Positions 9,125 through 35,329 of a DNA stretch of 64,000 nt are shown piece after piece; position 1 is the stretch's first letter; each line of letters opens with the position of its first letter. The notes beneath the pieces are model-generated. The model had not been told where the DNA came from, did no database searches, and was given only the letters and a program-made list of their open reading frames with translations. Source of the stretch: Escherichia phage allfine; the sequence record MN850633.1; one strand, given 5' to 3'. A program made the position numbers and the translations under genes.

Positions 9125-9155
9125 ATTTAAGGACTCTCGTAAGAATCCTTAGAAG

Positions 9156-9231: not shown

Positions 9232-9236
9232 AAATT

Positions 9237-9315: not shown

Positions 9316-9317
9316 AT

Positions 9318-9392
9318 TGGCGGGGGATGTTGGAATTGAACCAACTTCTTCGATTTCAAAGACCGAGGTTTTAACCTTGTAAACTAATCCCC
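9318..9392 (-). tRNA. tRNA-Gln (UUG)
   Basis: Anticodon stem UCGGU/AUCGA loop CUUUGAA, T-arm GUUGG-UUCAAUU-CCAAC; acceptor pairing imperfect. Confidence 0.55.
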
Positions 9393-9401
9393 TTTAAATC
9401 T

Positions 9402-9959
9402 TTACTTTCTCAGTGGATGAATAAAGAATGCCAACATAACTCTTTCCCTTGAGAATGCTCTTTCTTCTGGGACAACACTTTTTAGTTTCCATCCAATATA
9501 AATTCTCCAGTAAAATTGTTTACCAAAGATTTTAATTGATGGGATAAAAGCGAATAATCCCCAAGCATTCCTGTTCCACATTAGGAGATAACCAGTCTGA
9601 TTATCTTCAGGGTTAGAACTTACGTTGATATTACCTTTCCACTTAGTAACATCTTTTACATCTCTTCCTAACACATGGTAAGAGAAGTTATAAGCTTTGT
9701 TTCTCCAGAGCCATCCAACTCTTTGCATGTAGACACCTAGTTTACCAATCCATCTAATATTAGCCCATCTTTTAACGTGACCTTCATCACCATCAATTGG
9801 GTTGTCATAGGTCTCCATCCATCTGAATCCAAAAGGTAGATGTCCTTTCTTCTCACTGTAGAATGGAACTACAAAAGGTGCTAAGATAACTGCTAAGATT
9901 GCTGCAAATGGCTCTAACAAAGCTAAGAAAATCCATGAAGCATACTTCAAATATCTCAT
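9402..9959 (-). CDS. hypothetical membrane protein (185 aa)
   Basis: ORF with strongly hydrophobic N-terminus (two predicted TM helices), Trp-rich; embedded in tRNA array. Confidence 0.45.
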   Translation of the reverse strand: MRYLKYASWIFLALLEPFAAILAVILAPFVVPFYSEKKGHLPFGFRWMETYDNPIDGDEGHVKRWANIRWIGKLGVYMQRVGWLWRNKAYNFSYHVLGRDVKDVTKWKGNINVSSNPEDNQTGYLLMWNRNAWGLFAFIPSIKIFGKQFYWRIYIGWKLKSVVPEERAFSRERVMLAFFIHPLRK

Positions 9960-9978
9960 CTAAATAGCCTCTTTAAAT

Positions 9979-10054
9979 TGGCGCAGGATAAGGGATTCGA
10001 ACCCCTATTAACAGCTTCGTAGACTGTTGCTCTATCCATTTGAACTAATCCTGC
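9979..10054 (-). tRNA. tRNA-Arg (ACG)
   Basis: Acceptor GCAGGAU/AUCCUGC, D-stem GUUC/GAGC, anticodon stem ACAGU/GCUGU loop CUACGAA, T-arm AGGGG-UUCGAAU-CCCUU, CCA. Confidence 0.8.
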
Positions 10055-10059
10055 AAAAT

Positions 10060-10137
10060 TGGTGTTCCAAGACGGATTCGAACCGTCACTAGTACAAGGT
10101 TTGAGCTTGCATCCTCTGCCAATTGGGATACTGGAAC
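10060..10137 (-). tRNA. tRNA-Leu (CAA)?, Leu-like D-loop, short variable region
   Basis: Acceptor GUUCCAG/UUGGAAC, anticodon stem GCAAG/CUUGU loop CUCAAAC, T-arm GACGG-UUCGAAU-CCGUC. Confidence 0.5.
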
Positions 10138-10138
10138 A

Positions 10139-10213
10139 TGGTACTCACTAAAGGACTTGAACCTTTTTCTTCATCTTGTAAGGGTGATGTTTTACCATAT
10201 AAACTAAGCGAGT
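10139..10213 (-). tRNA. tRNA-Val (UAC)
   Basis: Acceptor ACUCGCU/AGUGAGU, D-stem GUUU/AAAC, anticodon loop CUUACAA, T-arm AAAGG-UUCAAGU-CCUUU. Confidence 0.65.
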
Positions 10214-10306
10214 ATGAAAGAGGTCTGGAGTTGTGCCGCTAACTCAACTCCGTGGAATTTGTTACGGTCTTCAGTTGACTCAAAGCGGTCTTTCACTTGA
10301 CCTCTG
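10214..10306. ncRNA. structured non-tRNA element inside tRNA array (candidate small RNA)
   Basis: Terminal 7-bp pairing AGAGGUC/GACCUCU enclosing hairpin GGAGUUG...CAACUCC; no T-arm consensus; fills gap between tRNA-Val and tRNA-Thr. Confidence 0.3.
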
Positions 10307-10309
10307 AAT

Positions 10310-10386
10310 TGGTGCTGCTCACAGGACTCGAACCTGCATTTCCATCCTTACAAGGGATGTGTAATAGCCAATTATACGAAAGCAGC
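10310..10386 (-). tRNA. tRNA-Thr (UGU)
   Basis: Acceptor GCUGCUU/GAGCAGC, anticodon stem CAUCC/GGAUG loop CUUGUAA, T-arm GCAGG-UUCGAGU-CCUGU. Confidence 0.8.
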
Positions 10387-10392
10387 ATTGTT

Positions 10393-10467
10393 TGGAGCAT
10401 CCAGAGGGAATCGAACCCTCAACCTCAGTTTGGAAGACTGTAATTTTCCCGTTTAAACTATGGATGC
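10393..10467 (-). tRNA. tRNA-Gly (UCC)
   Basis: Acceptor GCAUCCA/UGGAUGC, D-stem GUUU/AAAU, anticodon loop CUUCCAA, T-arm GAGGG-UUCGAUU-CCCUC. Confidence 0.75.
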
Positions 10468-10473
10468 ACTAAT

Positions 10474-10549
10474 TGGTGGAGAAGCAGGGAATTGAACCCT
10501 GTACTTAAGTTTGCAAAACTTATGTTTTAACCATGTAAACTACATCCCC
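10474..10549 (-). tRNA. tRNA-Ala (UGC)
   Basis: Anticodon stem UAAGU/ACUUA loop UUUGCAA; acceptor carries the G3-U70 wobble pair characteristic of tRNA-Ala; T-arm CAGGG-UUCAAUU-CCCUG. Confidence 0.8.
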
Positions 10550-10555
10550 ATTGTT

Positions 10556-10631
10556 TGGTACAGGTGGAGGGAATTGAACCCATCGTCTTACTGATTAAGA
10601 GTCAGCCGCATAACCATTTTGCTACACCTGC
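10556..10631 (-). tRNA. tRNA-Lys (CUU)
   Basis: Acceptor GCAGGUG/CACCUGU, anticodon stem GCUGA/UCAGU loop CUCUUAA; paralogous to the tRNA at 11790-11865. Confidence 0.6.
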
Positions 10632-10638
10632 ATTAATT

Positions 10639-10716
10639 TGGTAGGAGACAAGGGATTCGAACCCTCAAACATCTCGTTCTAAGCGAGATAGGTTTACCAA
10701 TTACCGTCAATCTCCC
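10639..10716 (-). tRNA. tRNA-Leu (UAG)?, atypical
   Basis: Acceptor GGGAGAU/GUCUCCU, anticodon stem UCUCG/CGAGA loop CUUAGAA, T-arm GAGGG-UUCGAAU-CCCUU; D-arm irregular. Confidence 0.5.
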
Positions 10717-10975
10717 ATTAAATCTTTTTAGAGAACTTCTAAGAACCTAAGCAACAAGGTTCCACAACAAGCTGTAATAACCTTAGAAGCCCTCTAAAAA
10801 GACCTAAAAAGGTCTTTGCATAGTCTTGTTTAATCCGGTGACTAGAACCTTTGGAGAGCTTGATATTATCTCTTCTCCGTGACACCTACTAGGTGCTTTA
10901 CTGTGCGTGTACGACAATACACTAGGGATACCAAAGCAACATCCGAATGAAGCTTGGCTTTAAATCTTATTAGGC

Positions 10976-11061
10976 GGTAAGTAAAGGAGTCGAACCCTCA
11001 CCGTATCTCTACAGTGGCAACTGTTTTCAAGACAGTTTGGCTACCATTAGCCGCTACCTAC
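10976..11061 (-). tRNA. tRNA-Ser (UGA), type II
   Basis: Anticodon stem ACUGU/ACAGU loop CUUGAAA, long variable arm, acceptor GUAGGUA/UACUUAC; boundaries approximate. Confidence 0.6.
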
Positions 11062-11075
11062 CCCTAATAAGACTT

Positions 11076-11158
11076 TGGCATGGGACGGAGGAGTTGAACC
11101 ACTTTGAAACGGTTTTGGAGGCCGTTGCTCATGCCTTAGAGTCTTAACATCGTCCCAC
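11076..11158 (-). tRNA. tRNA-like, possible tRNA-Trp (CCA), atypical 5-prime half
   Basis: Acceptor GUGGGAC/GUCCCAU with encoded CCA, anticodon-like arm ACGGC-CUCCAAA-ACCGU, about 7 extra nt in D region. Confidence 0.4.
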
Positions 11159-11301
11159 ACTATAATTCGAAGCTTACCGTATTTTCACAACACTGTAAAG
11201 CCCCTTCTCAGATTATTTACATGTTCTGGAAAACATGAGATACAGACCACCTCCTTACACGGAGACCCGATAAGGTCGTCTAAGTAATCTGCTAACTAAA
11301 T

Positions 11302-11383
11302 TGGTCGAGGCGGCAGGACTCGAACCCGCATACTCCACTTACTCGGTTAACGGCGGTTTAGAAGACCGCTGAGATACGCCCCG
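11302..11383 (-). tRNA. tRNA-like, possible tRNA-Arg (UCU), lacks canonical D-arm
   Basis: Good T-arm GCGGG-UUCGAGU-CCUGC and acceptor CGGGGCG/CGCCUCG plus CCA; anticodon arm GCGGU-CUUCUAA-ACCGC directly after acceptor; 23-nt extra segment. Confidence 0.4.
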
Positions 11384-11631
11384 TAATTATCTTTAAAGAC
11401 TCTCTTAGAAAGCCCTTAAAGATGCCCACCTTATTAATCATACCGTGGGCTAGTACGCCAAATTCTTTGATGAGGGATTGGAAGACCTCACTGGTGTTTA
11501 GCCTATCAAGCTACTGCCAGAAAAACATTGTCGTTTGCATTTATTTTAAATTTGCAAAATAGACGCTACGCAACGAAAACTAAGGTTACTATAAAGTAGT
11601 CACATCTCAATGTCAACAACTTTATTGAAAT

Positions 11632-11707
11632 TGGTACTGGTAGGTGGAATCGAACCACCGATGTTCCCTTATCAGGGGAGTGTTATAACCTTCTTAACTA
11701 TACCAGC
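11632..11707 (-). tRNA. tRNA-Ile (GAU)
   Basis: Acceptor GCUGGUA/UACCAGU, D-stem GUUA/UAAC, anticodon loop CUGAUAA, T-arm GGUGG-UUCGAUU-CCACC. Confidence 0.75.
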
Positions 11708-11708
11708 T

Positions 11709-11785
11709 TGGAGGTTCAGATGGGAATCGAACCCACATTCATAGGGCTTATGAGACCCTTGCATTACCTTATCTGCGACTGAACC
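11709..11785 (-). tRNA. tRNA-Met (CAU), elongator-type acceptor
   Basis: Acceptor GGUUCAG/CUGAACC, anticodon stem AGGGU/GCCCU loop CUCAUAA, T-arm GUGGG-UUCGAUU-CCCAU. Confidence 0.75.
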
Positions 11786-11789
11786 ATAT

Positions 11790-11865
11790 TGGTAGAAGTG
11801 GAGGGATTCGAACCCATCGCCTGTCAGATTAAAAGTCTGCCGCATAACCATTTTGCTACACTTCC
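11790..11865 (-). tRNA. tRNA-Lys (UUU)
   Basis: Acceptor GGAAGUG/CACUUCU, anticodon loop CUUUUAA, D region identical to tRNA-Lys(CUU) paralog. Confidence 0.65.
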
Positions 11866-12122
11866 ATTAAATTACCTTTGTAGATAAGCTACCCAGACTT
11901 GCTTAAGGTCTGTAGCGATGTGCCTTGTTGGGTTTAAATCTAGAATTTACCCTTTCACCCTTTGTGGTCGCATACTCACAGGTAAGCTTAATAACTTATC
12001 TACAAAGATAATTACCAGACCGTTGTTTATCATCTTAAGTGCTACCATTACACCAACTCGACATCTGCCGAGTGAAGGAATCGAACCTTCGCCTTTTCTT
12101 TACCGGAGAAATAGATTGTTTA

Positions 12123-12152
12123 AGTTTTGCTGTAAACGGTCTTCTGTAAATT
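12123..12152. repeat. repeat motif TTGCTGTAA-N2-GGTCTTCTGTAAA, copy 1 of 4 in tRNA array
   Basis: Near-identical copies at about 12205-12232, 12596-12629 and 12763-12790; CCAGACC partner forms long-range inverted repeat with GGTCTTCTG. Confidence 0.5.
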
Positions 12153-12204
12153 TGTTGAGCCAGACCAAGTTTTAAATTTTCAAAATTAAATTGGCTTGAA
12201 ATTT

Positions 12205-12232
12205 CATACATTCTTGCTGTATTTGGTCTTCT
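12205..12232. repeat. repeat motif copy 2 (TTGCTGTATTTGGTCTTCTG)
   Basis: Shares core with copies at 12123, 12596, 12763; upstream partner CCAGACCAAG at about 12163. Confidence 0.45.
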
Positions 12233-12294
12233 GCTCCTTTAAAGAATACTCGTAAGAACTCTTTAAGGGAGGGGCTAAATAGCCCTCTCAAAAT

Positions 12295-12371
12295 TGGCGG
12301 CTACGATGAGACTTGAACTCACATCATCTCCCGTGACAGGGGAGTATTTTCTCCAGTTAAACTACATAGCC
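12295..12371 (-). tRNA. tRNA-Asp (GUC)
   Basis: Acceptor GGCUAUG/CGUAGCC, anticodon stem CUCCC/GGGAG loop CUGUCAC, T-arm GUGAG-UUCAAGU-CUCAU, CCA encoded. Confidence 0.85.
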
Positions 12372-12376
12372 TTTAT

Positions 12377-12464
12377 TGGTGTGCCGTGTAGGAGTCGAAC
12401 CTACCGAGTCTCAATGACAAGGGATTTACAGTCCCCACCGCTACCATCTACGGGATAACGACAC
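12377..12464 (-). tRNA. tRNA-Tyr (GUA), type II
   Basis: Acceptor GUGUCGU/ACGGCAC, anticodon stem GGGGA/UCCCU loop CUGUAAA, long variable arm, T-arm GUAGG-UUCGACU-CCUAC. Confidence 0.75.
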
Positions 12465-12476
12465 ATTTAAATTTTG

Positions 12477-12550
12477 CGGTTAGTCAGGGATTCGAACCCT
12501 GTGCCATTCGCTTAACAGGCGACCGCACATACCTTATGTGCTTCCTAACC
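12477..12550 (-). tRNA. tRNA-Asn (GUU)
   Basis: D-stem GCAC/GUGC, anticodon loop CUGUUAA, T-arm CAGGG-UUCGAAU-CCCUG; CCA not encoded. Confidence 0.75.
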
Positions 12551-12595
12551 TTAATACATTGCCAGACCGTGTTTTTCTTTTATCCGCAAAAAGTA

Positions 12596-12629
12596 GTTTG
12601 TTGCTGAATACGGTCTTCTGTAAATTTGG
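12596..12629. repeat. repeat motif copy 3 (TTGTTGCTGAATACGGTCTTCTGTAAATTTGG) with upstream CCAGACCG partner at about 12571
   Basis: Same core as 12123 and 12763 copies. Confidence 0.5.
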
Positions 12630-12703
12630 AGGCGGGTGCAGGAGTCGAACCTGCCGATACCATGCTAATGAGACATGTGAGACGCCCTTTCTCTATACCC
12701 GCA
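12627..12703 (-). tRNA. tRNA-Met or Ile2 (CAU)
   Basis: Anticodon stem CAUGU/GCAUG loop CUCAUUA, D-stem GAGA/UCUC, T-arm GCAGG-UUCGACU-CCUGC; position 1-72 mismatch in one register. Confidence 0.6.
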
Positions 12704-12762
12704 ATTCTTAATGACCAGACCAAATATCTTCTTTGTCCGATTTCGTGTCAGATGAGTAGATT

Positions 12763-12790
12763 AAGTTTGCTGTAATTGGTCTTCTGTCAA
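12763..12790. repeat. repeat motif copy 4 (TTGCTGTAATTGGTCTTCTGTCAAAA) with upstream CCAGACCAA partner at about 12714
   Basis: Same core as other copies; on minus strand reads TTGACAGAAGACC. Confidence 0.5.
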
Positions 12791-12793
12791 AAC

Positions 12794-12871
12794 TGGCGTT
12801 CCAGAAGGGATTTGAACCCTCAAATATCCACTTTGAAAGAGTGGTGACTTTACCATTTTGTCTACTGGAAC
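12794..12871 (-). tRNA. tRNA-Glu (UUC)
   Basis: Acceptor GUUCCAG/CUGGAAC, anticodon stem CCACU/AGUGG loop CUUUCAA, T-arm GAGGG-UUCAAAU-CCCUU, CCA. Confidence 0.8.
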
Positions 12872-12878
12872 ATTAATT

Positions 12879-12955
12879 TGGTCTCTGTTGGAGGACTTGA
12901 ACCTCCGGCCTTACCGCCCCAAACGGAACGCTCTACCAAGCTGAGCTAAACAGAG
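12879..12955 (-). tRNA. tRNA-Pro (UGG)
   Basis: Acceptor CUCUGUU/AACAGAG with C1-G72 typical of bacterial tRNA-Pro, D-stem GCUC/GAGC, anticodon loop UUUGGGG, T-arm GGAGG-UUCAAGU-CCUCC. Confidence 0.8.
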
Positions 12956-21721: not shown

Positions 21722-22936
21722 AATATCTTAAGAGCCTCCTTAATTGGGGGTTTTTTAATTTTTTATAAAATTTTATCGGTTGTCCCAACCTCTGGGTCAC
21801 CATCATATGTGAATAAAGTATCTATCCTTTTTAACAACCTTCTTAATCTTACTCTCTATATAGTTATATAGTACTATATAGTATCTTAGTATCTATCTAG
21901 TGGTCTTAATAGCCCCTCTGTATAACCCTTCTAACAAGCCCTCTAACAAGCCATCTAAACACTCTTCTAACAAGCCTTCTAAACAACCTATACAATCATC
22001 TTAACCATCTCTCTATATCCTCTTAGAAGCTCCTATACACCTCTTAATCTCTAGGTTAGCTATGTTACCCTCTATAGGTGTTCACTAGGTACTACTAAGC
22101 CTCTATATAGACTGTTTTAACAAACTTAACAGGAATATCTTCACAGACCTTATCTCACAAGGTCTAACACGGTACTAACAAGGTATCTTATAAGCCTGTT
22201 ATTACCTGTATTTTTAAAAGACTGTCTAGGTAATTATTCAGAATCTTAAAATTTTTATAAAATAGGACTATCAAGTCATTTTTTAGGGTCTTTGAAGGAA
22301 CTGAAAAATATCTGATTAGGATGTATATCTGCTTGGTAGCCCTTAACAGCTCCCTTACAAGTACTTTGCAAAATTTTAAAATATCCTTAACAATTTCTTA
22401 ACAACTCTCTCAAGCTCTTAACAAATCTTCAAAGGTCTTAACAGATTCTTAACAGAACTAACAAGGATGTAACAGTTTCTTAACAGTTGATACATAGTCT
22501 TTACAGAGTCTTAACAGATGACTAACAAGAGTTAATTAGTTAATTTTAAAGAGTTATTTTGTTAAGATAATTAACAAGTTCCTAACAAGTGTTTAATCTT
22601 TTTAACAAGCTATTAACATGGTCACTATCTCTTGGTCTATAGTTCCCTTTCCTTCTTAGTGATTCTTTAAACATACCTCTTAAAAGCTCTCTATAGCTCT
22701 TCATAGGCTCTTTTAAGTCTCTTCCTAGTAGTTACACCCCAACTGTACAGACACCTCTTTATAGGGCTTTACAGGAGCTTTTAAGGCTATGTCAAAGACT
22801 CTTACAAGGCTTTTACGTGGTCTTAACAGAGATTTAACAAGGGGCTAACAAGTTGCTAACAAGTGCCTTAAAAGCATAACTATGTAGGGATTGTTAAGAA
22901 ATTGTTAAGAAAATGTTAAGGGGGCTAGCATTTACG

Positions 22937-22990
22937 TAACTTTTAAACTACTTCAAAATAACTTTTAAACTACTTCAAAATAACTTTATA
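22937..22990. repeat. tandem direct repeat, 22-bp unit TAACTTTTAAACTACTTCAAAA x2 plus partial third
   Basis: Perfect tandem duplication read directly in sequence. Confidence 0.85.
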
Positions 22991-23309
22991 GCCCCCTTCT
23001 TAGATATTCACAAGATAGCTAACGAGATAATAAAGCTTACACCCTTATAAGATTCTTTTAAGTCTCTGGGAAGCTTTATAAAGGGCTTTTTAGGGTGAGT
23101 TAATGCAATCCCTTAAGTTAGGTTGATAAGGCTGTTATAGAGCTTTATAGAGCGTTTAAACGGTTGCCCTTCCCTTTCGGGTTATGGGCTTATATTTAAG
23201 TTGATTTGATAAAAGGCTATAGAGTAGACTATAGAGTTATTGCTTTTTAAGGTCTGATAAGATTCTGGAAAGGAAAGGGAAAGGGTTGTATAAGGGATTT
23301 GATAAGACG

Positions 23310-23336
23310 TAAAAAAGCCCCTATGGGAAAGGGGCT
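23310..23336 (-). terminator. rho-independent terminator at end of small-ORF array
   Basis: Minus strand AGCCCCUUUCCCAUAGGGGCU hairpin followed by UUUUUU, just downstream of stop at 23375. Confidence 0.7.
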
Positions 23337-23374: not shown

Positions 23375-23623
23375 TTAGTTAGTGCCTTTTTTGTCGTAGT
23401 ACAGGGAGACAATTTTTTCACCCCAGTAGTGGTATGTATAACCCTCTTTGAGAACTTCCTGTTTTGTTTCTTTCCAGAATTCATCAGAGGGGTTGTAGTC
23501 ACTGATGGTCTGGCTGATAAGGCCTTTCACCATTTCAAAGGTGTTATCAGTACCTACAAGGTCAAATTTAACGTCCAGAGAGTAGAAGCCGAATTCGTTA
23601 ACAGTTGCGCGGATAGTAGCCAT
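23375..23623 (-). CDS. hypothetical protein (82 aa), array gene 15
   Basis: ORF preceded by conserved cassette (GGAG RBS plus stem-loop). Confidence 0.55.
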   Translation of the reverse strand: MATIRATVNEFGFYSLDVKFDLVGTDNTFEMVKGLISQTISDYNPSDEFWKETKQEVLKEGYTYHYWGEKIVSLYYDKKGTN

Positions 23624-23700
23624 TTTAGAATCTCCAGTTTAGGAAGTTGATTAAGGGTTTTATTTAGTGGGGAAGGTCATTCCCTCCCCGTTGATTGACA
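23624..23700 (-). repeat. intergenic cassette type A: RBS CTAAACTGGAGATTCTAAAATG plus hairpin GGGGAGGGAAUGACCUUCCCC
   Basis: Near-identical copies at 24234-24300, 24796-24870, 26020-26090, 26884-26960. Confidence 0.7.
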
Positions 23701-23702
23701 AT

Positions 23703-24233
23703 TTACAGACTTTTGATTGTCTCGTCAATATCTTTTTCAATATCTTTTAAAGTTTTTTCTAAGTTCTTGATATTGAAAGATAAGCCCTCTCCTAGTGTCT
23801 TAGAGTAACCGCTAGGACGTGAGTTATATAGTTCGATTTCTTCCACTTCGAAGAGACTAACCAACTCACCGCTTACACTGTAAGCCATTGAAACAGTATT
23901 TACAGGGGCTTTATAAAACTTGTTTAAGGACTTGATAGAACGTTCATAAGCCATTTTATAACCGTTTAAAAGGTTTTTAACGTGGTTACGAACGTTTTTG
24001 CACTCATCTAAGTAAATCTCTAAGAATAACGGTAATAATTCCGCTACAGCTTGCATAAAGTGAGAGACTACAACAGTAGAAACATTACGGCGATGAATGT
24101 AATAAGCCCCGTTTTCTGACTTAGTGATGGTTGCAAAGTGTACCCCATTGCAGCGAAATTCGTATGTGTCTTTTACAGGTTTTGACATTACAGCATTTGA
24201 ACGAATGAAGTTGATAGCTTTAAACTTGTTCAT
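23703..24233 (-). CDS. hypothetical protein (176 aa), array gene 14
   Basis: ORF preceded by type A cassette. Confidence 0.55.
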   Translation of the reverse strand: MNKFKAINFIRSNAVMSKPVKDTYEFRCNGVHFATITKSENGAYYIHRRNVSTVVVSHFMQAVAELLPLFLEIYLDECKNVRNHVKNLLNGYKMAYERSIKSLNKFYKAPVNTVSMAYSVSGELVSLFEVEEIELYNSRPSGYSKTLGEGLSFNIKNLEKTLKDIEKDIDETIKSL

Positions 24234-24300
24234 TTTGACTCTCCTAGTTTAAGGATTTTATTTAGTGAGGAAGGTCATCCCTCCCGTTGATTAGTAATTT
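24234..24300 (-). repeat. intergenic cassette type A
   Basis: CATTTTGACTCTCCTAGTTTAAGG...GAGGAAGGTCATCCCTCCC copy. Confidence 0.65.
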
Positions 24301-24453
24301 ACTTGTTTTGATAGCTGATTGCAAGCAATTTTTTAAGCTTATCTATAAAGAATCTTTTAAGTGAATCCCTTTTAGATAAACCCCCTCGAACAAAGTTACC
24401 AATGTCAAGGGGTATTGTCAACACTTTTTTAAAAGTTTTTTGTAAGTTATTGA

Positions 24454-24795
24454 TTAACTGATGAATATTTTTTCAGGCTTTACATAGCTGATACGTTGAC
24501 TTTTTAGAAGGTCATCCCAGATTATCGCGGCAATGTGACCATATCCGGCCTCACGTAAGAGCTTCATTGCTTTACTTCTCGTTTCAAAACGGCTTGCGTA
24601 GTACTCACTATTCAGAGTTGTTTTCTTCCCTTCATTGTCTACATGAATAATCTGCATTACGTGAAAGGGGCTTGTGTCCTCGCCTTTGTTCCACTGTTCA
24701 AAGTATTTTAGGCACTGCATAGGCGACATCTTATCACTAACCTGAGTTGACCAAGATGCGCCAGCTTTATCGGTAATTACGGTTACATAAGCCAT
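24454..24795 (-). CDS. hypothetical protein (113 aa), array gene 13
   Basis: ORF preceded by type A cassette. Confidence 0.55.
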   Translation of the reverse strand: MAYVTVITDKAGASWSTQVSDKMSPMQCLKYFEQWNKGEDTSPFHVMQIIHVDNEGKKTTLNSEYYASRFETRSKAMKLLREAGYGHIAAIIWDDLLKSQRISYVKPEKIFIS

Positions 24796-24870
24796 TTTTA
24801 GAATCTCCAGTTTAGGACTTCATTTAGTGGGGAAGGTCATTCCCTCCCCGTTGATTGACAATTTACAGAC
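24796..24870 (-). repeat. intergenic cassette type A
   Basis: Conserved RBS block and hairpin GGGGAAGGTCATTCCCTCCCC. Confidence 0.7.
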
Positions 24871-24885
24871 TTTTATCAGGCTTGT

Positions 24886-25119
24886 CTAGTCTTTTTCAAT
24901 GATAATTTCATATTGACCGTCAACGCTGTCAAAATAGATGCCGTCTTTATCTTCTGTCTTAAAGTAGCATTGTATATCATCACTTGCGGGATAGTCTTGC
25001 CGTGCTATCTGGCAAACTTGAATAGCATTTTCTTTACTTCCTGTAAACTCTTCAAGCCCTTTAAAATCGCATGAATGACCATTACAGATGGAAAGGATGA
25101 GGTAAACGGTTGTAAGCAT
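24886..25119 (-). CDS. hypothetical protein with hydrophobic N-terminus (77 aa), array gene 12
   Basis: ORF; N-terminus MLTTVYLILSICNG may be signal or lipoprotein-like. Confidence 0.45.
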   Translation of the reverse strand: MLTTVYLILSICNGHSCDFKGLEEFTGSKENAIQVCQIARQDYPASDDIQCYFKTEDKDGIYFDSVDGQYEIIIEKD

Positions 25120-25162
25120 GATTTAAGCCCCCTAAAAGCCCCTACAAGGGGCTGATTAGTGT

Positions 25163-25729
25163 TTATAAGGTGATTGCATAGGTTTTTAAAAAAAAGCTCT
25201 TTAAATCCTCTTCTGCGATGTTTCCTGCCAGTGTATCCATGATGTCACAAAAAACCTGAATGCTGTCCGACTGTTGAACGCTTTTAGCAAGAAGCTCCAG
25301 AGACTCATCAAGATAGTTTAAATTTGGGTTATCCAATGAAGGAAGACAAAAAGGCGAAAACATCGCATTAAACTCGGTTACGTAAACCTTTTTAATCCAA
25401 TTTAAATCGAAGTATTCTGTAAAACTTGCTACGCCAGACATATTATCACAAGAATAATCATCATTTAATTCGTCCTCTGGAATATCAAGTTCCAAGATAA
25501 CAATGTTTTGGGTTTTCATCTGGAAAGCTGCCGTGATAGTGGCATTTCCTAACGCCTGTTGAATACCTTCGGATACTATCTCTTCCTCATCGTCACCATA
25601 GATTTTATTTTCTGGGTATACGTAAAAATTGCCATCCATATCCGAACAATTCCATGCACCTGATGGCTTATCACCATTATTAATCAGGTTGATAAAGTTT
25701 TCTTGAGTAGTACCGTGAAAGCATTTCAT
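25163..25729 (-). CDS. hypothetical acidic protein (188 aa), array gene 11
   Basis: ORF preceded by type B cassette. Confidence 0.55.
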   Translation of the reverse strand: MKCFHGTTQENFINLINNGDKPSGAWNCSDMDGNFYVYPENKIYGDDEEEIVSEGIQQALGNATITAAFQMKTQNIVILELDIPEDELNDDYSCDNMSGVASFTEYFDLNWIKKVYVTEFNAMFSPFCLPSLDNPNLNYLDESLELLAKSVQQSDSIQVFCDIMDTLAGNIAEEDLKSFFLKTYAITL

Positions 25730-25815
25730 TTTTTGAATCTCCAGTTTAGGATTTAGTGGTAAAGCTCTTTATCTGGGGCTTACTTTATCGAACTATAAGC
25801 CCCTTGTAAAGTACT
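25730..25815 (-). repeat. intergenic cassette type B: RBS CTAAACTGGAGATTCAAAAAATG plus hairpin GGGGCTTATAGTTCGATAAAGTAAGCCCC and upstream AAAGTACTTTACAAGG motif
   Basis: Copies at 26525-26610, 27594-27685, 28199-28286, 28545-28633, 29015-29102. Confidence 0.7.
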
Positions 25816-26019
25816 TTATTTGTTATTTTTGACAACTTTTAAGACTGCAAGATACCCTAAGCAATAAGAATCACCGAAGAGAGTCCTACCCATGAAAGAA
25901 TCCTCTTTGATATCCTTTGTAGTGACAGTTTTTTCTACGCCGTGGGAAAGGACTATATCGCCAACTTTGATATCTTTGATGTGTGTAGTTTCAATGTTTA
26001 AGCCGTTAATAATAGCCAT
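25816..26019 (-). CDS. hypothetical protein (67 aa), array gene 10
   Basis: ORF preceded by type A cassette. Confidence 0.5.
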   Translation of the reverse strand: MAIINGLNIETTHIKDIKVGDIVLSHGVEKTVTTKDIKEDSFMGRTLFGDSYCLGYLAVLKVVKNNK

Positions 26020-26090
26020 TTTAGAATCTCCAGTTTAGGACTTTACTTAGTGGGGAAGGTCATTCCCTCCCCGTTGATGTGTAATTTAAT
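26020..26090 (-). repeat. intergenic cassette type A
   Basis: Conserved RBS block and hairpin. Confidence 0.7.
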
Positions 26091-26119
26091 CTATCTAAAA
26101 ACCGGTGTCAACAAAATTT

Positions 26120-26524
26120 TTAGAGTTCTGCATAAATTGCATCACAGACATCACGAAAATCGTGATTTGTCAAATTACGTTGTAACCAAGTGGCAAAGAA
26201 ATCAGCGATTGCAAAATTAGCGTCATACTCGACGGATAGCCATACTTTAACAGCAAATCGAAACATTTTTAAATCAAGCTCTTTATTCATTATCTTTGAT
26301 TTGCCTAACATGTCAGCCATTTCATATTGTGCGCCGTCTAGCGTGATACCTGATGCAACGTCAGCCAATGATTTTTTTACGTTTTCAACGTCTAAGATAA
26401 CGCTTTGAATCTTCCCGATAATGTTGTGCAATGTCTCATCAGGCGCTGATGACGTGATAACATTAATCCGGTTAACGGTCAAACGTGCTTTTAAGATTGA
26501 TAATTCACGGTTATTAATAGCCAT
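26120..26524 (-). CDS. hypothetical protein (134 aa), array gene 9
   Basis: ORF preceded by type B cassette. Confidence 0.55.
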   Translation of the reverse strand: MAINNRELSILKARLTVNRINVITSSAPDETLHNIIGKIQSVILDVENVKKSLADVASGITLDGAQYEMADMLGKSKIMNKELDLKMFRFAVKVWLSVEYDANFAIADFFATWLQRNLTNHDFRDVCDAIYAEL

Positions 26525-26610
26525 TTTTAAGTTCTCCAGTTTAGGATTTAGTGGTAAAGCTCTTTATCTGGGGCTTACTTTATCGAACTATAAGCCCCCT
26601 GTAAAGTACT
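26525..26610 (-). repeat. intergenic cassette type B
   Basis: Conserved RBS block and hairpin. Confidence 0.7.
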
Positions 26611-26883
26611 TTACACTAAATGCAGCTTTTTACCTTTTACTATGATGTAACTCGATGCGCTATTGCTTTGCACATCCTGATAAATTCTGCGCAAACGGCC
26701 TTCGTAGTATACTTTCCAACTGGTTGGAATCTTTTTCCCGTATCCTGTAGCAGTTTTTTGTAGTCCTGCAAGTTGCCAATCTAAGATATGTTGTTCGGCT
26801 TGTAAATCTTCGAAGTGCATTACACCGTTCACATAGTGACGAATGGTTACGTTTAAGGTGCGACCGTTGTTAGTAGTGTACAT
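26611..26883 (-). CDS. hypothetical protein (90 aa), array gene 8
   Basis: ORF preceded by type A cassette. Confidence 0.55.
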   Translation of the reverse strand: MYTTNNGRTLNVTIRHYVNGVMHFEDLQAEQHILDWQLAGLQKTATGYGKKIPTSWKVYYEGRLRRIYQDVQSNSASSYIIVKGKKLHLV

Positions 26884-26960
26884 TTTGAATCTCCTAGTTT
26901 AAGGACTTTACTTAGTGGGGAGGTTATTACCTCCCGTTGATTAGTAATTTACTTGTTTTA
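26884..26960 (-). repeat. intergenic cassette type A variant
   Basis: CATTTTGAATCTCCTAGTTTAAGG...GGGGAGGTTATTACCTCCC. Confidence 0.65.
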
Positions 26961-26970
26961 AAAACCAAAA

Positions 26971-27303
26971 TCAAGAGGAATTTTTTCGTTTGCTCAATTC
27001 TTGAACAATTACAGCGTAGTAGTCTTTTAAGTCACTGACATTTAAAGCATTTATCAGAGAATTATAATCATCGACTAACTGAAAATCATCTTTGAAAATG
27101 TCGCTGATTTGATAAGTTTTTGATTGAAATCTGAAGCTCATTTCTAACCGTTTTATTTGTTCATCACTTAAACGCTCCAGAAAGCTCATTACAAGGCTAT
27201 TATTGACCTGTTGCGTGATTGCCTTATTTGCTAGATTATAGGCTTTATATGCCTTATATAGCGCGAAAATGGCAAGGATTGCGGTGATGCCAGTCATTAA
27301 CAT
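26971..27303 (-). CDS. hypothetical membrane-anchored protein (110 aa), array gene 7
   Basis: N-terminal TM helix MLMTGITAILAIFALYKAY. Confidence 0.5.
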   Translation of the reverse strand: MLMTGITAILAIFALYKAYKAYNLANKAITQQVNNSLVMSFLERLSDEQIKRLEMSFRFQSKTYQISDIFKDDFQLVDDYNSLINALNVSDLKDYYAVIVQELSKRKNSS

Positions 27304-27593
27304 GGTGTTTCCTCTTTACGTGATACTTTGCCATTTACAGTTATCTCATAGGATTCTAATAAGTCACTTTTAGACTTTACTGGACTTTTAAAAGTATCAT
27401 CATAAATATTTACTTGCAATACAGGTTTTTTATACTCCCTGCAACTATTCCATAAGCAAATCACTACGCGACGGCCTTTTATTTTGCCGTGCAACCATTC
27501 CATAACATCATGATTATTTCTTGATGTCTCGATAAAATCAATTTTGTTGAGTAATTTGCTCAGATTTTCACGCACTTGATTTGATAATTTCAT
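27297..27593 (-). CDS. hypothetical protein (98 aa), array gene 6
   Basis: ORF preceded by type B cassette; overlaps downstream gene start by 7 nt. Confidence 0.55.
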   Translation of the reverse strand: MKLSNQVRENLSKLLNKIDFIETSRNNHDVMEWLHGKIKGRRVVICLWNSCREYKKPVLQVNIYDDTFKSPVKSKSDLLESYEITVNGKVSRKEETPC

Positions 27594-27685
27594 TTTAGAA
27601 TCTCCTAGTTTAAGGGCTTTATTTGATAAATCTCTTTATCTGGGGCTATCTTACCAGCTTGATAACCCCGTGTAAAGAAATCTAT
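27594..27685 (-). repeat. intergenic cassette type B variant
   Basis: Conserved RBS block; hairpin GGGGCTATCTTACCAGCTTGATAACCCC. Confidence 0.6.
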
Positions 27686-28198
27686 TTAGTTCTTAAAGAT
27701 ATTCATCACTGAGTCTTTCAACGATTCCAAACGTTCTAATACTTCAGTTTCTGCGTCTGAATTGTTCACCTCTTCTTTTAGTCTATCTTCTAAATCCTCA
27801 CCGTCACTATAGCACCAATCGAAAGCGTAACCAATATAAAAGCTGTCTAAAACCGTTTTACCGTTTGCATCTACAACTTTCGCGGCAATGTTATACTCTG
27901 AAGCTTCTAAATCTCTTTCTAGTTCTTTTTGTAAGCTGATGTAAGCCTCTTTTGATGGATTTTCCCGGCCTTGTTTTGCATAGTCACTTGAAAGCTGTTT
28001 AAGGCTGTAATGCAAAGGGATTGCATATTTAAATGCATTATGCTGATAGTTAGGATTTTTAACAGTCACGCCGCCTTGATGGTCATCTGTAAACTTCCAA
28101 TTATCAAGGTTATGGCTTGCTTCGTAGCAATTTACCGCTTCATAGATAATGGTGAATTTTTCTTTTACAACTTCAAAAGTAGCGTCTACAGTTTTCAT
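27686..28198 (-). CDS. hypothetical acidic protein (170 aa), array gene 5
   Basis: ORF preceded by type B cassette. Confidence 0.55.
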   Translation of the reverse strand: MKTVDATFEVVKEKFTIIYEAVNCYEASHNLDNWKFTDDHQGGVTVKNPNYQHNAFKYAIPLHYSLKQLSSDYAKQGRENPSKEAYISLQKELERDLEASEYNIAAKVVDANGKTVLDSFYIGYAFDWCYSDGEDLEDRLKEEVNNSDAETEVLERLESLKDSVMNIFKN

Positions 28199-28286
28199 TT
28201 TTGAATCTCCAGTTTAGGATTTAGTGGTAAAGCTCTTTATCTGGGGCTTAAGATATCAACTTTTAAGCCCCTTGTAAAGTACTTTA
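28199..28286 (-). repeat. intergenic cassette type B
   Basis: Conserved RBS block and hairpin. Confidence 0.7.
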
Positions 28287-28544
28287 TCAGATTAAATTGC
28301 CAGTTAATGATAAGTGCATTTTATAGCCTTTTTTGGTAAAGACGTTCACTTTACCGAGTGATTTTACACCTTTAAAAAGGTTGTTTGAACTGCGTTTTAA
28401 GGTTAGTTGTTTATCAGCCTTTACTCCCCATCTTACAGCGGATTGTTTTCCGTTGTCAACCACTTTCCCGCATAACTTTTTAGCCATAACGCGAGCGTCA
28501 TCACGAGTTTTTGCAGCAATTACAACGTTTTTGATAATAGCCAT
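28287..28544 (-). CDS. hypothetical basic protein (85 aa), array gene 4
   Basis: Start placed at Met 6 of track ORF because conserved cassette RBS is positioned for ATG at 28544. Confidence 0.5.
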   Translation of the reverse strand: MAIIKNVVIAAKTRDDARVMAKKLCGKVVDNGKQSAVRWGVKADKQLTLKRSSNNLFKGVKSLGKVNVFTKKGYKMHLSLTGNLI

Positions 28545-28633
28545 TTTTAAGTTCTCCAATTTAGGATTTAGTGGTAAAGCTCTTTATCTGGGGCTTACTT
28601 TATCGAACTATAAGCCCCTTGTAAAGTACTTTA
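28545..28633 (-). repeat. intergenic cassette type B
   Basis: Conserved RBS block and hairpin. Confidence 0.7.
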
Positions 28634-29014
28634 TCAGTTAATTTTGAAAATTGTCACATAGCCGTCACTGCCGATTATTTGAGACACTCCAGCTTTTTCC
28701 ACTGAATAGCCCATATTTTCAAGATGATAAACAGCATCATCATAACCATATGCGCCACCCTGATAACGTCTCTTATCGCATCTTATCAGGTTTTTACCAC
28801 GTCCTGCAAGTGCATTCAGTACAGCTTTTTCACTTGATAGCGTACCATCTAACATGGTTGCCGTGTAATGGTTGATTTTATTCCCGTTAATATCATACTT
28901 AAAATTGAATGCGTGAATAACAATCAATTTGCCGTTAAATTTTTCATCAAGTGACTTCTCCAGTGCGTTGCGGAAGTTGTCTTTGTTGATGAATTTCGGT
29001 GCACGATAAGCCAT
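28634..29014 (-). CDS. hypothetical protein (126 aa), array gene 3
   Basis: ORF preceded by type B cassette. Confidence 0.55.
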   Translation of the reverse strand: MAYRAPKFINKDNFRNALEKSLDEKFNGKLIVIHAFNFKYDINGNKINHYTATMLDGTLSSEKAVLNALAGRGKNLIRCDKRRYQGGAYGYDDAVYHLENMGYSVEKAGVSQIIGSDGYVTIFKIN

Positions 29015-29102
29015 TTTTGAATCTCCTAGTTTAAGGTTAATGTAGTAAAGCTCTTTATCTGGGGCTTACTTTATCGAACTATAAGCCCCTTGTAAAGTAC
29101 TT
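29015..29102 (-). repeat. intergenic cassette type B
   Basis: Conserved RBS block and hairpin. Confidence 0.7.
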
Positions 29103-29309
29103 TTATCTATCGTAATAGTAAACCGCTGTCTGTTTTATATGTCGCTTTGTATTCTTCGTAAGGTAGCAATTAGAGTTGATTGCCGTTTCTACATAGTTGC
29201 AATAATCAGCTTCTGATATTCTACGCCATGCGCCGCACACTTGCATGTAAAAACGTTTTACCTTTGTATTAACGTTGGTTGTAACCATCAATTCACGGCT
29301 GTAAATCAT
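29103..29309 (-). CDS. hypothetical protein (68 aa), array gene 2
   Basis: Start taken at ATG overlapping upstream stop (TAATG) rather than track start 29324. Confidence 0.45.
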   Translation of the reverse strand: MIYSRELMVTTNVNTKVKRFYMQVCGAWRRISEADYCNYVETAINSNCYLTKNTKRHIKQTAVYYYDR

Positions 29310-29497
29310 TATTTCGCGCTCCATTTCTCAAAGAGTTCAGCAGGGAAACGTTCGCTATAACCTTTTAAGGAAAAAGTGTTATCTTTGTGGATAGCTTCCA
29401 CCTGATAAACCTTATAAGAACGTATAGTTAGCATTTTGTAAGAGTATTCGTGCTTAATGTTAACCTCATCGCCAACTTTAATTTTTCTTGATGCCAT
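29309..29497 (-). CDS. hypothetical protein (62 aa), array gene 1
   Basis: First ORF of array, preceded by GGAGAATCTAAGAAATG RBS and candidate promoter. Confidence 0.5.
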   Translation of the reverse strand: MASRKIKVGDEVNIKHEYSYKMLTIRSYKVYQVEAIHKDNTFSLKGYSERFPAELFEKWSAK

Positions 29498-29548
29498 TTC
29501 TTAGATTCTCCAGTTTAGGAAGTGGGCTTGATTGCCCGTCTGATGCAG

Positions 29549-29577
29549 ATATTAGATAACCATACTCAAAGAGTCAA
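29549..29577 (-). promoter_or_regulatory. sigma70-like promoter TTGACT-N17-TAATAT driving small-ORF array
   Basis: Minus strand reads TATTGACTctttgagtatggttatcTAATAT, about 45 nt upstream of first array ATG; same -10 as tRNA-array promoter. Confidence 0.5.
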
Positions 29578-29754: not shown

Positions 29755-29945
29755 ACCTACCTGCACAATTCTAAAATGATTTTTCTTGCCCGACCTGATT
29801 TTTCTCTGCACGTTTTGAAAATGAAAAAGCTCTTTGGAGATTACCTGCACAGTTTGAAAATGAATTTTCCCTTTGGAGTTCAAAATTTTCTCTACAGATT
29901 TCTCTACAGAACTCTACCTGCACAATCCTGAAATGAAAAAGCCCC
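29755..29945. repeat. four direct repeats CTGCACA(A/G)T(T/C)(C/T)TGAAAATGA in non-coding leader region
   Basis: Copies at about 29762, 29806, 29852, 29922; region 29498-30009 has no convincing ORF. Confidence 0.6.
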
Positions 29946-30009
29946 CCTTACCTGAAAAATTTACCAGATAAGAAAGGCTTAGTCTATTGTGAATACTATA
30001 CAGAATTTC

Positions 30010-30795
30010 TTAGTTCTTTGCGTCTAAGAAGGTTACTTCCGGTGAAGAGAAAACCGTCTCGATATCCTCATCATTTCTTGCATAGATGTAAGCATCTGCA
30101 TCACTGCCAAATGTTACTGCAATTCTGTGATTGCTCTTCGACAGGTGGGTAACTAGAGCGTTACTTAGAGACATCTTCTCAACCGGAGGGTTACTTTGAT
30201 GTATCTTACCTTTTCTTCGTCTGAAGAGGGTAACTGTATCATCTGTGAACATTACTACACCTGCAAAGTATTCTGGTTCACAGTAGTTATTCCAACCTGA
30301 GCGTAACTTGTGGTACATCTCTCCTTCGTAGACATACAGATAAACATCTACACTCTTCATCACCTGATTAATGATAACTGTGACGGCTTGAGGGTCTAGC
30401 CCACCGATACCTGCACCAATCATAGGTAGACCAACTTTCTTCAACTGATTGACTTCACAGTATCTGTTAAGCTGTTTCAAAGATGATTCTAAAGCACTGT
30501 ATCGGGCATCTTTACCAGTCTTAAGCTGAGTGTAAAGGTTAGCTATTCGACCTTGTTTTAAACGTGCTACAGAGAAATTACCCAGTAAATTTTCACAGGG
30601 TTTGTGTCCTATACCACCTGCATATAGATAAACTTCTGTATCGGTCTCATATGCTTTTGGGTAAAGTTTAGAAATCTTGTCAGCGATACCTGCACCCATT
30701 AAATTCATACAGTTGCAACCGTGACCGATGATGTCAAACTTACCTTTATCAAATGCGGCAAAGATATCACCATTGATTATTTTTACAATACCCAT
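30010..30795 (-). CDS. macro-domain protein (ADP-ribose binding/hydrolase family) with about 100-aa C-terminal extension (261 aa)
   Basis: Macro-domain signatures IINGDIF...DIIGHGCNCMNLMGAGIA and VGLPMIGAGIGGLDPQAV. Confidence 0.7.
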   Translation of the reverse strand: MGIVKIINGDIFAAFDKGKFDIIGHGCNCMNLMGAGIADKISKLYPKAYETDTEVYLYAGGIGHKPCENLLGNFSVARLKQGRIANLYTQLKTGKDARYSALESSLKQLNRYCEVNQLKKVGLPMIGAGIGGLDPQAVTVIINQVMKSVDVYLYVYEGEMYHKLRSGWNNYCEPEYFAGVVMFTDDTVTLFRRRKGKIHQSNPPVEKMSLSNALVTHLSKSNHRIAVTFGSDADAYIYARNDEDIETVFSSPEVTFLDAKN

Positions 30796-35255: not shown

Positions 35256-35299
35256 CTTATTACTCTCTCTTGTTAGTTAATAAATCATTTTGTGAGACT

Positions 35300-35329
35300 A
35301 TTCTAAGGGGCTTCAAAGCCCCTTGTCAA
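35300..35329 (-). promoter_or_regulatory. sigma70-like promoter TTGACA-N18-TAGAAT with GGGGCUUUGAAGCCCC hairpin in spacer
   Basis: Minus strand GTTTGACAaggggctttgaagccccTTAGAAT about 45 nt upstream of ATG at 35255. Confidence 0.5.

Follow-up and report, generated by a model that had tools for sequence, protein, structure and literature searches.

The closest described counterparts of the locus reported here are the promoter-early stem-loops (PeSLs) of T4-type phages, known from RB49/phi1, T4/PST and KVP40/nt-1 (PMC2839356; PMC4122927). Here we analyzed a 64,000-nucleotide stretch of Escherichia phage allfine (record MN850633.1; hereafter the window), a member of Felixounavirus (Felix O1-like myoviruses). 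The minus strand of the window carries an array of 15 small open reading frames (ORFs; 62-188 aa; 23375-29497), nearly all of whose gaps are filled by one of two families of repeated cassettes, type A and type B. Each cassette places promoter-like hexamers, a hairpin and a Shine-Dalgarno (SD) block in fixed register, and gene losses in related phages leave single cassettes, several of them chimeric. We consider it likely that these PeSL-like cassettes of promoter, hairpin and ribosome-binding site (RBS) both express and shuffle small early genes.

In both systems, repeated intergenic units of ~70-100 bp extend from a stop codon to the next ATG. They carry sigma-70-like −35 and −10 hexamers spaced 16-18 nt apart (in the array, at the sequence level), a stem-loop with GGGG...CCCC arms that sits either in the promoter spacer or shortly 3' of the −10, and, last, an SD. 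Both cluster in a variable region ahead of small genes to which no function has been assigned, with the breakpoints of gene gain and loss inside the units. The array differs in lineage (Ounavirinae, with genomes of ~88 kb), in having only two families with one common fixed SD block, in lacking a U-tract and, for type A, in a second, lower stem of 12-13 bp that joins the stop codon and −35 region to the 5' leader. All of its copies lie at a single locus, whereas PeSLs occupy several hyperplastic regions, and whereas promoter activity, terminator activity and mini-circles have been demonstrated for PeSLs, the array is known from sequence alone. Searches with the cassettes (blastn, word size 11) matched 251-288 records, all Ounavirinae or misassigned and none T4-like, and cassette matches in IMG/VR were all on contigs of 51-94 kb. 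Judged by its layout, the architecture is that of a PeSL; shared descent with the T4-type PeSLs is not supported.

In the literature searched, PeSL-mediated shuffling is documented so far only in T4-like phages, and we found no Felixounavirus transcriptome, no promoter or stem-loop work on Felix O1 and no report of PeSLs in Felix-like phages. Parts of the cassettes had already been listed in the Felix O1 genome paper, where a 57-bp direct repeat (CTTTACATGGGGCTTAAAAG...AGAGCTTTACCACT) corresponds to the type A core and a 39-bp direct repeat (TTGACACTGGTTTTTAGATAGATTAAATTACACATCAAC) to the promoter half of type B (Whichard et al. 2010, PMC3185647). They were given only between genes 15/16, 19/20, 18/19 and 20/21, without interpretation, and were not among the promoters predicted there (PMC3185647).

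Region 23375-29577 was 99.9% identical to Escherichia phage momo (MN850580) and had matches in 255 related phage records. We numbered the ORFs g15 to g1 along transcription and name gaps in the same direction; from g1 to g15 the products measure 82, 176, 113, 77, 188, 67, 134, 90, 110, 98, 170, 85, 126, 73 and 62 aa. Two pairs overlap (g10/g9 at 27297-27303 and g15/g14 at 29309-29324), which leaves 12 expression units. Among the 12 real gaps, 6 are type A (upstream of g5, g7, g10, g11, g12 and g13; 86-92 nt) and 5 are type B (upstream of g1, g2, g3, g6 and g8), and a type-B-like leader precedes g15. The 11 cassettes and the leader are 79-100 nt each and in register with the upstream stop and the downstream ATG. 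The type A and type B core patterns had five and three matches, respectively, versus 0.00 expected by chance for each. When profiles were scanned over 85.6 kb of the 88-kb genome, all 11 cassettes were confined to the array locus (23.6-29.6 kb), and the SD block C[CT]TAAA[CT]T[AG]?GGAG had all 12 of its copies in the array and none elsewhere. The sole gap without a cassette is g5>g4 (43 nt), which has its own SD and a terminator-like hairpin with compensatory stem changes across relatives. Having no promoter of its own, g4 probably depends on read-through from g5.

An earlier note on this stretch had described the array as small ORFs separated by two families of RBS-plus-stem-loop cassettes, each with a fixed SD block and a stable hairpin. 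The two families were recovered in 11/12 real gaps, the SD block in 12/12 units, and folding of the hairpins gave −16 to −28 kcal/mol (z = −2.6 to −4.4 versus dinucleotide shuffles). On the anatomy the description was incomplete, as it missed the sigma-70-type promoter that stands in invariant register in each cassette; the coordinate at which it ended the array, 29577, is the first base of the −35 hexamer of the leader promoter.

The type A cassettes are, in order of transcription:

29015..29105, minus strand: type A before g13; −35 TTTACA 29091-29096, −10 TAAAGT 29068-29073, long hairpin 29045-29105, SD block 29023-29036
28545..28634, minus strand: type A before g12; −35 28620-28625, −10 TAAAGT 28597-28602, long hairpin 28574-28634, SD block 28554-28565
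28199..28287, minus strand: type A before g11; −35 28273-28278, −10 TATCTT 28250-28255 preceded by TGn, long hairpin 28227-28287, SD block 28207-28218
27594..27685, minus strand: type A before g10, a diverged copy; −35 27671-27676, −10 TAAGAT 27648-27653, long hairpin 27626-27685 with a perfect 13-bp lower stem, SD block 27602-27615
26525..26614, minus strand: type A before g7; −35 26600-26605, −10 TAAAGT 26577-26582, long hairpin 26554-26614, SD block 26534-26545
25730..25819, minus strand: type A before g5; −35 25805-25810, −10 TAAAGT 25782-25787, long hairpin 25759-25819, SD block 25739-25750

From 5' to 3', type A consists of the stop codon, AAAGTAC, TTTACA, N, GGGGCTTA, a loop, TAAGCCCC, AGATAAAGAGCTTTAC, ~10 nt, CCTAAACTGGAGATTC, ~5 nt and the ATG. 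Its putative sigma-70-type promoter, TTTACA-17-TAnnnT, keeps a fixed register: TTTACA was present in 84/85 copies from 15 phages, and TAnnnT lay exactly 17 nt from it in 31/31 distinct cores, which carried ten different hexamers, while at other offsets it was nearly absent (1/31 cores at a single offset). In a wider set of 162 distinct copies, the spacing was 17 nt in 154 and 18 nt in 7 more. Because the 'TA' of the −10 lies in an otherwise freely varying hairpin loop, its invariance is not explained by structure. An extended −10 TGn accompanied many of the weaker hexamers (for example, 36/40 with TATCTT), and an independent consensus scan called 6/6 type A promoters, 3/5 type B promoters and the leader promoter. 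We also considered a T4-style MotA-box middle promoter within type A (AGCTTTA, 11 nt, TAAACT) and rejected it: its start would fall 3' of the SD, and the Felix O1 genome paper reported no MotA/AsiA-like factors (PMC3185647), which also counts against such a box. Outside the array, a minus-strand promoter of other sequence at 35290-35329 has a hairpin in its spacer too (TTGACA-aGGGGCTTTGAAGCCCCt-TAGAAT), so the hairpin-in-promoter design is not restricted to the array.

The type A hairpin (~21 bp, interrupted) comprises a 9-bp upper stem inside the 17-nt promoter spacer, a 3x3 internal loop and a lower stem of 12-13 bp, in which the upstream stop codon and −35 region pair with the block AGATAAAGAGCTTTA; this pairing explains the strong conservation of that block. 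Folding energies were −25 to −28 kcal/mol (z about −4). Across the 162 copies, pooled from the window, 15 annotated phages and 46 IMG/VR stretches, standard pairs filled 90.7% of pair cells, compared with 35-52% when the 3' partner was slid by 1-3 nt. Four pairs showed compensatory switches: U7 (T-A 126, A-T 35, one mismatch), U8 (A-T 122, T-A 26), U9 (four pair types) and L8 (G-C 126, T-A 21). Fisher p-values were below 1e-19 for each but overstate independence, as the copies are related by descent; recombination shuffles variants between positions and so breaks up this relatedness. G.T pairs were frequent on the mRNA-sense strand (U5, TG 58; L7, TG 148; U9, TG 51; L10, 19), and the dominant type B stem likewise has sense-strand G.T. 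Since these would be A.C mismatches on the other strand, they indicate an RNA structure rather than a DNA palindrome, and on the evidence of covariation we take the type A hairpin to be one. In Erwinia phage phiEa21-4, GGGG/CCCC, which does not vary in the other copies, was replaced by GGTG/CACC, with TTTACA-17-TAGTAT or TAATCT retained.

The RNase III sites of the T7 early genes are intercistronic hairpins of about two helical turns with an internal loop, in a unit transcribed by the host polymerase. Type A resembles them in size, internal loop and intercistronic place, and the features seen (9 + 12-13 bp, a 3x3 loop, covariation) would suit a site of this kind, with a putative role in cleavage. 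The T7 sites differ in having no promoters and in not being long direct DNA repeats implicated in gene shuffling.

The leader and the type B cassettes are:

29498..29577, minus strand: leader (type-B-like) before g15; −35 TTGACT 29572-29577, −10 TAATAT 29549-29554, small hairpin GGGCAATCAAGCCC 29524-29537, SD block 29508-29519
26884..26974, minus strand: type B before g8; −35 TTGATT 26969-26974, −10 TAAATT 26946-26951, hairpin 26917-26935, SD block 26891-26904
26020..26111, minus strand: type B before g6; −35 TTGACA 26106-26111, −10 TAAATT 26083-26088, hairpin GGGGAGGGAATGACCTTCCCC 26052-26072, SD block 26028-26039
24796..24888, minus strand: type B before g3; −35 TAGACA 24883-24888, −10 TAAATT 24860-24865, hairpin 24829-24849, SD block 24805-24816
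24234..24324, minus strand: type B before g2, a variant forming the 3' part of the 220-nt g3>g2 gap; −35 TTGCAA 24319-24324, −10 TAAATT 24296-24301, hairpin 24267-24285, SD block 24241-24254
23624..23728, minus strand: type B before g1; −35 TTGACG 23723-23728, −10 TAAATT 23700-23705, hairpin 23669-23689, SD block 23632-23643

All copies of type B have the predicted promoter TTGnnn/TAGACA-17-TAAATT. Across more than 7 unrelated contexts, TAAATT or TAAAGT always had TTGACA, TTGCAA, TTGACG, TAGACA or TTGATT 17 nt before it, and some of these −35 hexamers lie inside coding sequence. That of the g1 cassette is within g2, whose stop codon is the TAA of the −10; that of the g3 cassette (TAGACA) includes the g4 stop codon; and the last sense codon of g9 (TTG) with its TGA stop makes up the first five bases of the next −35 (TTGATT). 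The same anatomy is found in the undisputed leader promoter. As to the AT-rich tract that PeSLs have ahead of the −35, the 7 nt before the type B −35 contain 5-6 A/T (background 62% A+T), and runs of A13-A15 occur upstream of the −35 in tootiki and fjerdesal. The hairpin starts 10 nt after the −10, and nearly all of 45 variants retain a stem of 6-8 bp. The ompA 5' untranslated region (UTR) forms a 5'-terminal stem-loop that shields this E. coli mRNA from RNase E. Type B has the same predicted geometry, with the difference that its start is placed from the position of the −10 only.

The loop of the type B hairpin, GGGAATGACC, holds an in-frame ATG, at which several GenBank records start g1, g2 or g3, making the products 15-16 residues too long (for example, warpig_68 with 97 aa versus 82 and adrianh_77 with 128 aa versus 113). 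The KhF2 record (KT184314) marks the type B hairpins as rho-independent terminators and places them on the strand that does not encode the genes.

The SD block occurs as two alleles, CC-TAAAYT-GG (314 copies) and CCT-TAAAYT-AGG (168 copies), and 0/482 copies had just one of the extra bases. The pairing of the extra bases fits a small stem that would partly cover the SD, as does the Erwinia version CCTT-ATA-AAGG; tight physical linkage could be an alternative cause.

Taken as a mechanism, the array would consist of 12 autonomous early expression units in a row. Each cassette would supply a promoter read by host sigma-70, the conserved hairpin at the RNA level and, with the SD, an invariant 5' leader. 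In type A, the predicted start is the A of CCCCAGA, 7-8 nt after the −10. Transcripts initiated there would lack the 5' arm of the hairpin, which would consequently be restricted to read-through RNA of the upstream gene, where it would probably act as an insulator, that is, as a 3' stabilizer, an attenuator or an RNase III-type processing site. In type B, the hairpin would begin 2-3 nt after the predicted start (7-8 nt after TAAATT), giving promoter-initiated mRNA a 5'-terminal stem-loop of the kind that protects E. coli mRNAs from 5'-end-dependent decay. As 60-100 bp of near-identical DNA in direct orientation, the cassettes would further allow homologous recombination to delete, insert or swap gene units precisely, with one chimeric, functional cassette remaining. 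We infer promoter activity, start sites and hairpin roles from conserved register and pairing.

To compare gene content, we took the locus from 14 relatives (Felixounavirus, Mooglevirus and Suspvirus), grouped the ORFs into families and located the cassettes by profile search. Gene order was conserved, and the 15 phages had 11 different gene contents. Felix O1 is without g15, g13, g12, g6, g5 and g4; an 87-aa gene (f19) lies between g2 and g1 in seven phages; and another (f28) is an extra gene in KhF2 and takes the place of g6 in two genera. Five gene losses were checked base by base, and each leaves one cassette of normal length. The junctions in fjerdesal and tootiki are exact chimeras of the parental cassettes: at fjerdesal g12>g10, 62 nt from the 5' end match the left parent and 56 nt from the 3' end the right parent, with a crossover zone of 21 nt (agccccagataaagagcttta), and in tootiki the zone is 62 nt. 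The other three of the five junctions, judged by eye from the sequences, are also chimeric single cassettes, with point changes relative to the chosen parents. The Felix O1 g14>g11 and g7>g3 cassettes are chimeric likewise. The gene g11 was lost twice, by different crossovers. At an insertion in skuden (f42), only 25 nt with the SD block stand between the inserted gene and g8.

In ~45 genomes, the genes behind 431 cassettes belong to only 19 families. Five families, g13, g5, g6 and g3 among them, have type A or type B before them according to the upstream neighbor, as would be expected of additional crossovers within the 3' block common to both types. Hairpin variants sit at different positions in different phages. 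In a test for concerted evolution, identical hairpin variants were found at a rate of 0.21 within a genome versus 0.31 at the same position across genomes, with no within-genome excess. On these sequences, cassette variants appear to move between positions, and we do not claim strong homogenization. Among related records, only 9% covered at least 80% of the array, versus 34% for an equally long control region. The corresponding locus of phiEa21-4 (Kolesnikvirus), directly 3' of the macro/Tk.4 gene, is built of promoter-hairpin-RBS units with homologous type A copies among them; most of its cargo is unrelated, and the shared genes are reordered. The proposal that genes come and go at cassette boundaries holds in relatives. 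Like integron cassettes and phage morons, the units are small accessory genes exchanged as discrete, presumably autonomously expressed pieces at defined boundaries. In contrast to integrons, the cassettes have no attC-like site and no sign of an integrase, and the crossovers look like homologous exchange in shared sequence; in contrast to morons, the flanking regulatory sequences are themselves the repeats that mediate exchange.

Two further observations concern the records of related phages. In NBEco005, a duplication of the leader promoter that includes a truncated g14 start lies ~600 nt upstream of g14 and looks like a scar of unequal recombination. GU169904 ('Staphylococcus phage SA1', 147 kb) and MG065664 ('Campylobacter phage A132') contain a Felix O1-like locus at ~90% identity; these are probably chimeric or contaminated assemblies or have a misassigned host.

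A reading without internal promoters would have a single early polycistronic transcript run from the leader, with the cassettes as processing or stability elements plus RBS, type A as an RNase III site and the hexamers as by-products of AT-rich arms. In this exclusive version we consider it unlikely. The 9-bp/3x3/12-13-bp hairpin, with its sense-strand covariation and its position exactly between cistrons, would suit such processing, a strong leader promoter and bounding terminators exist, and because TTTA of the −35 pairs in the lower stem, its conservation could be partly structural. What this reading leaves unexplained are the −10 'TA', invariant in register though in a freely varying loop, the extended −10 TGn that goes with weaker hexamers, and the type B −35 hexamers held at 17 nt in unrelated coding contexts where no RNA structure requires them; the type B hairpin (8 bp) is, moreover, too short for RNase III. 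RNase III processing can also hold alongside promoters. That the cassette hairpins are ordinary rho-independent terminators, each followed by an RBS, is very improbable. The G+C-rich stems are intergenic, the KhF2 record labels those of type B as terminators, and PeSL stem-loops lowered read-through in a reporter (PMC2839356). Here, no U-tract follows either hairpin (type A continues with AGATAAAG and type B with ACTAAAT; CCCCAGATAAAG and CCCCACTAAAT are the sequences after the hairpins), and a scan that called both true array-end terminators, at 23316-23336 and 29939-29980, made no call on the cassette hairpins. The KhF2 features are on the wrong strand, and under this reading the downstream genes would have no promoter.

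The inverted repeats might also be operators in double-stranded DNA, through which a dimeric regulator of the phage or the host switches the entire array, or targets of a dedicated site-specific recombinase, to either of which we assign only a slight chance. The 27-nt imperfect inverted arms and the highly conserved block CCCCAGATAAAGAG would be in keeping with a bound protein, and the PeSL authors speculated on a protein recognizing GGGG...CCCC (PMC2839356). The TG pairs at U5, L7 and U9, however, place the symmetry at the RNA rather than the DNA level, and crossover points vary by event within whatever the parents share (21 nt, 62 nt), which fits homologous rather than site-specific exchange. 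Selfish mobile repeats of the MITE or REP kind, with no role in expression, would likewise produce many near-identical copies whose variants move between positions. They would not be expected in one orientation only, in exact register with stop and ATG, as the only source of an SD for the downstream gene and confined to one genome locus that is the same in four genera, and we regard this reading as barely credible.

Several points weigh against cassettes that both express and shuffle early genes. We found no transcript 5'-end or reporter data for Felix O1-like phages in the literature searched, and promoter activity is deduced solely from conservation. In type A, the −10 is a weak hexamer (4/6 matches) with a GC-rich discriminator after it, and the T at −10 position 6 is also under base-pairing constraint in the stem. 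With no U-tract, the terminator role claimed for PeSL stem-loops lacks sequence support here. Reverse-transcription PCR in Felix O1 placed the peaks of ORFs 16, 20, 21 and 22 (g11, g7, g3 and g2) at 5 min after infection, but those of four other array genes, ORFs 14, 17, 19 and 23, at 25 min (PMC3185647); this timing is compatible with early transcription by host polymerase and is not decisive. The region had also been called hyperplastic and built by recombination between cassettes. Content does change by such recombination, but gene order is fixed, the cargo pool is small (the 19 families above) and indels occur in the cassette-free flank as well, so that genes can be gained or lost without cassettes.

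The genes of the array and the features that bound it are:

29935..29980, minus strand: intrinsic terminator after the macro-domain gene; counterpart of Felix O1 t13; upstream boundary of the transcription unit
29309..29497, minus strand: g15, 62 aa; PHROG of unknown function; present in only 4/15 phages compared
29103..29324, minus strand: g14, 73 aa; start overlaps the g15 end by 16 nt
28634..29014, minus strand: g13, 126 aa; missing from Felix O1 and tootiki
28287..28544, minus strand: g12, 85 aa from ATG; very basic, pI 10.6; missing from Felix O1
27297..27593, minus strand: g10, 98 aa; in all relatives
26971..27303, minus strand: g9, 110 aa; N-terminal hydrophobic segment; start overlaps the g10 end
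26611..26883, minus strand: g8, 90 aa; in all relatives
26120..26524, minus strand: g7, 134 aa; in all relatives
25816..26019, minus strand: g6, 67 aa; missing from Felix O1; f28 instead in Silverhawkium and phiSUSP1
25163..25729, minus strand: g5, 188 aa; very acidic (net −23); predicted ADP-ribosyltransferase-like fold
25134..25153, minus strand: g5/g4 terminator-like hairpin, AGCCCCTTGTAGGGGCT then TTTT
24886..25119, minus strand: g4, 77 aa; acidic; no promoter of its own
24454..24795, minus strand: g3, 113 aa; in all relatives
23703..24233, minus strand: g2, 176 aa; in all relatives
23375..23623, minus strand: g1, 82 aa; last gene of the array
23311..23336, minus strand: intrinsic terminator after g1; counterpart of Felix O1 t23; downstream boundary of the array

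The cargo had been described as lacking recognizable domains, with several acidic and some membrane-anchored products, and put forward as candidate host-takeover or anti-defense factors. None of the 15 ORFs had a Pfam match above threshold and all fall in PHROGs of unknown function, as claimed; the departure is g5, whose predicted fold is similar to known ADP-ribosyltransferases in a fold comparison. Acidity was confirmed for g1, g4, g5 and g11 (net −13) and, mildly, for g7 (pI 5.3), but only g9 has a clear N-terminal hydrophobic segment. In 17 homologs of g5, H5-G6-T7, Y36/Y38 and E80, candidates for a catalytic H-Y-E triad, are invariant or nearly so; searches of the Protein Data Bank (PDB) with the single sequence and with a profile gave no match below E = 0.1 and no ADP-ribosyltransferase match. 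The predicted fold is a lead rather than a demonstration, and it is the only concrete support for a role of the array in host takeover. Immediately upstream of the array in all genera examined lies a macro-domain protein (30010-30795; Pfam PF01661, 32 bits; annotated 'phosphatase' or Tk.4), and, if the fold model holds, the two proteins could be a candidate writer/eraser pair for ADP-ribosylation.

Non-coding sequence in and around the array has further structure. Between the upstream terminator and the leader promoter (29758-29935, minus strand) are three perfect copies and one degenerate copy of CATTTnnnnnnTGTGCAGGTA. No exact copy occurs elsewhere in the 64 kb, where matches with 3 mismatches are at chance level, and the motif is also present in the phiSUSP1 and Silverhawkium leaders; the copies may be candidate regulator sites controlling the array. 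The 5' part of the 220-nt g3>g2 gap (24325-24453) is a non-coding block kept across three genera (TTGACAataccccTTGACA...GAGGGGGTTTATCT), with no credible ORF and with the hexamers TTGACA-17-TAACTT, a possible additional promoter. At the convergent junction that immediately follows the array lies an ORF-poor region of ~1.3 kb (21855-23160). It contains repeats with a period of ~11 bp that are based on CTTAACA/TAACAAG in both orientations (Tandem Repeats Finder (TRF) periods 11, 12, 20 and 22), as well as inverted repeat pairs 370-520 nt apart. By their pattern these repeats resemble iterons and may mark an origin, a site of packaging or an array of protein-binding sites. On the minus strand, 8045-12955 holds 24 clustered tRNA genes, and an Rfam search of the whole window found these 24 tRNAs only, with no known RNA family matching the cassettes.

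A broader proposal can be put forward only tentatively, and we hold it to be doubtful as a whole: that the Ounavirinae possess a lineage-wide, integrase-free platform for accessory-gene exchange, independent of the T4-type PeSLs, in which one element would be early promoter, insulating bipartite hairpin (cut, probably by RNase III, or blocked, on read-through RNA) and homology patch, and whose cargo would include a previously unrecognized family of small acidic ADP-ribosyltransferases of the H-Y-E type next to a macro-domain protein. At a practical level, the cassettes predict transcription starts for otherwise unannotated genomes and correct start-codon and 'terminator' annotations in public records, while the predicted g5 fold offers one concrete, testable candidate for host takeover. 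With more than 250 sequenced relatives, some of them candidates for therapy or biocontrol, the locus is a convenient natural experiment and shows where accessory genes can come or go without disturbing expression. Finally, the occurrence of the same three-part design, with unrelated sequence, in an unrelated myovirus subfamily suggests that virulent phages have converged on such combined repeats as a general means of keeping and swapping small early genes.

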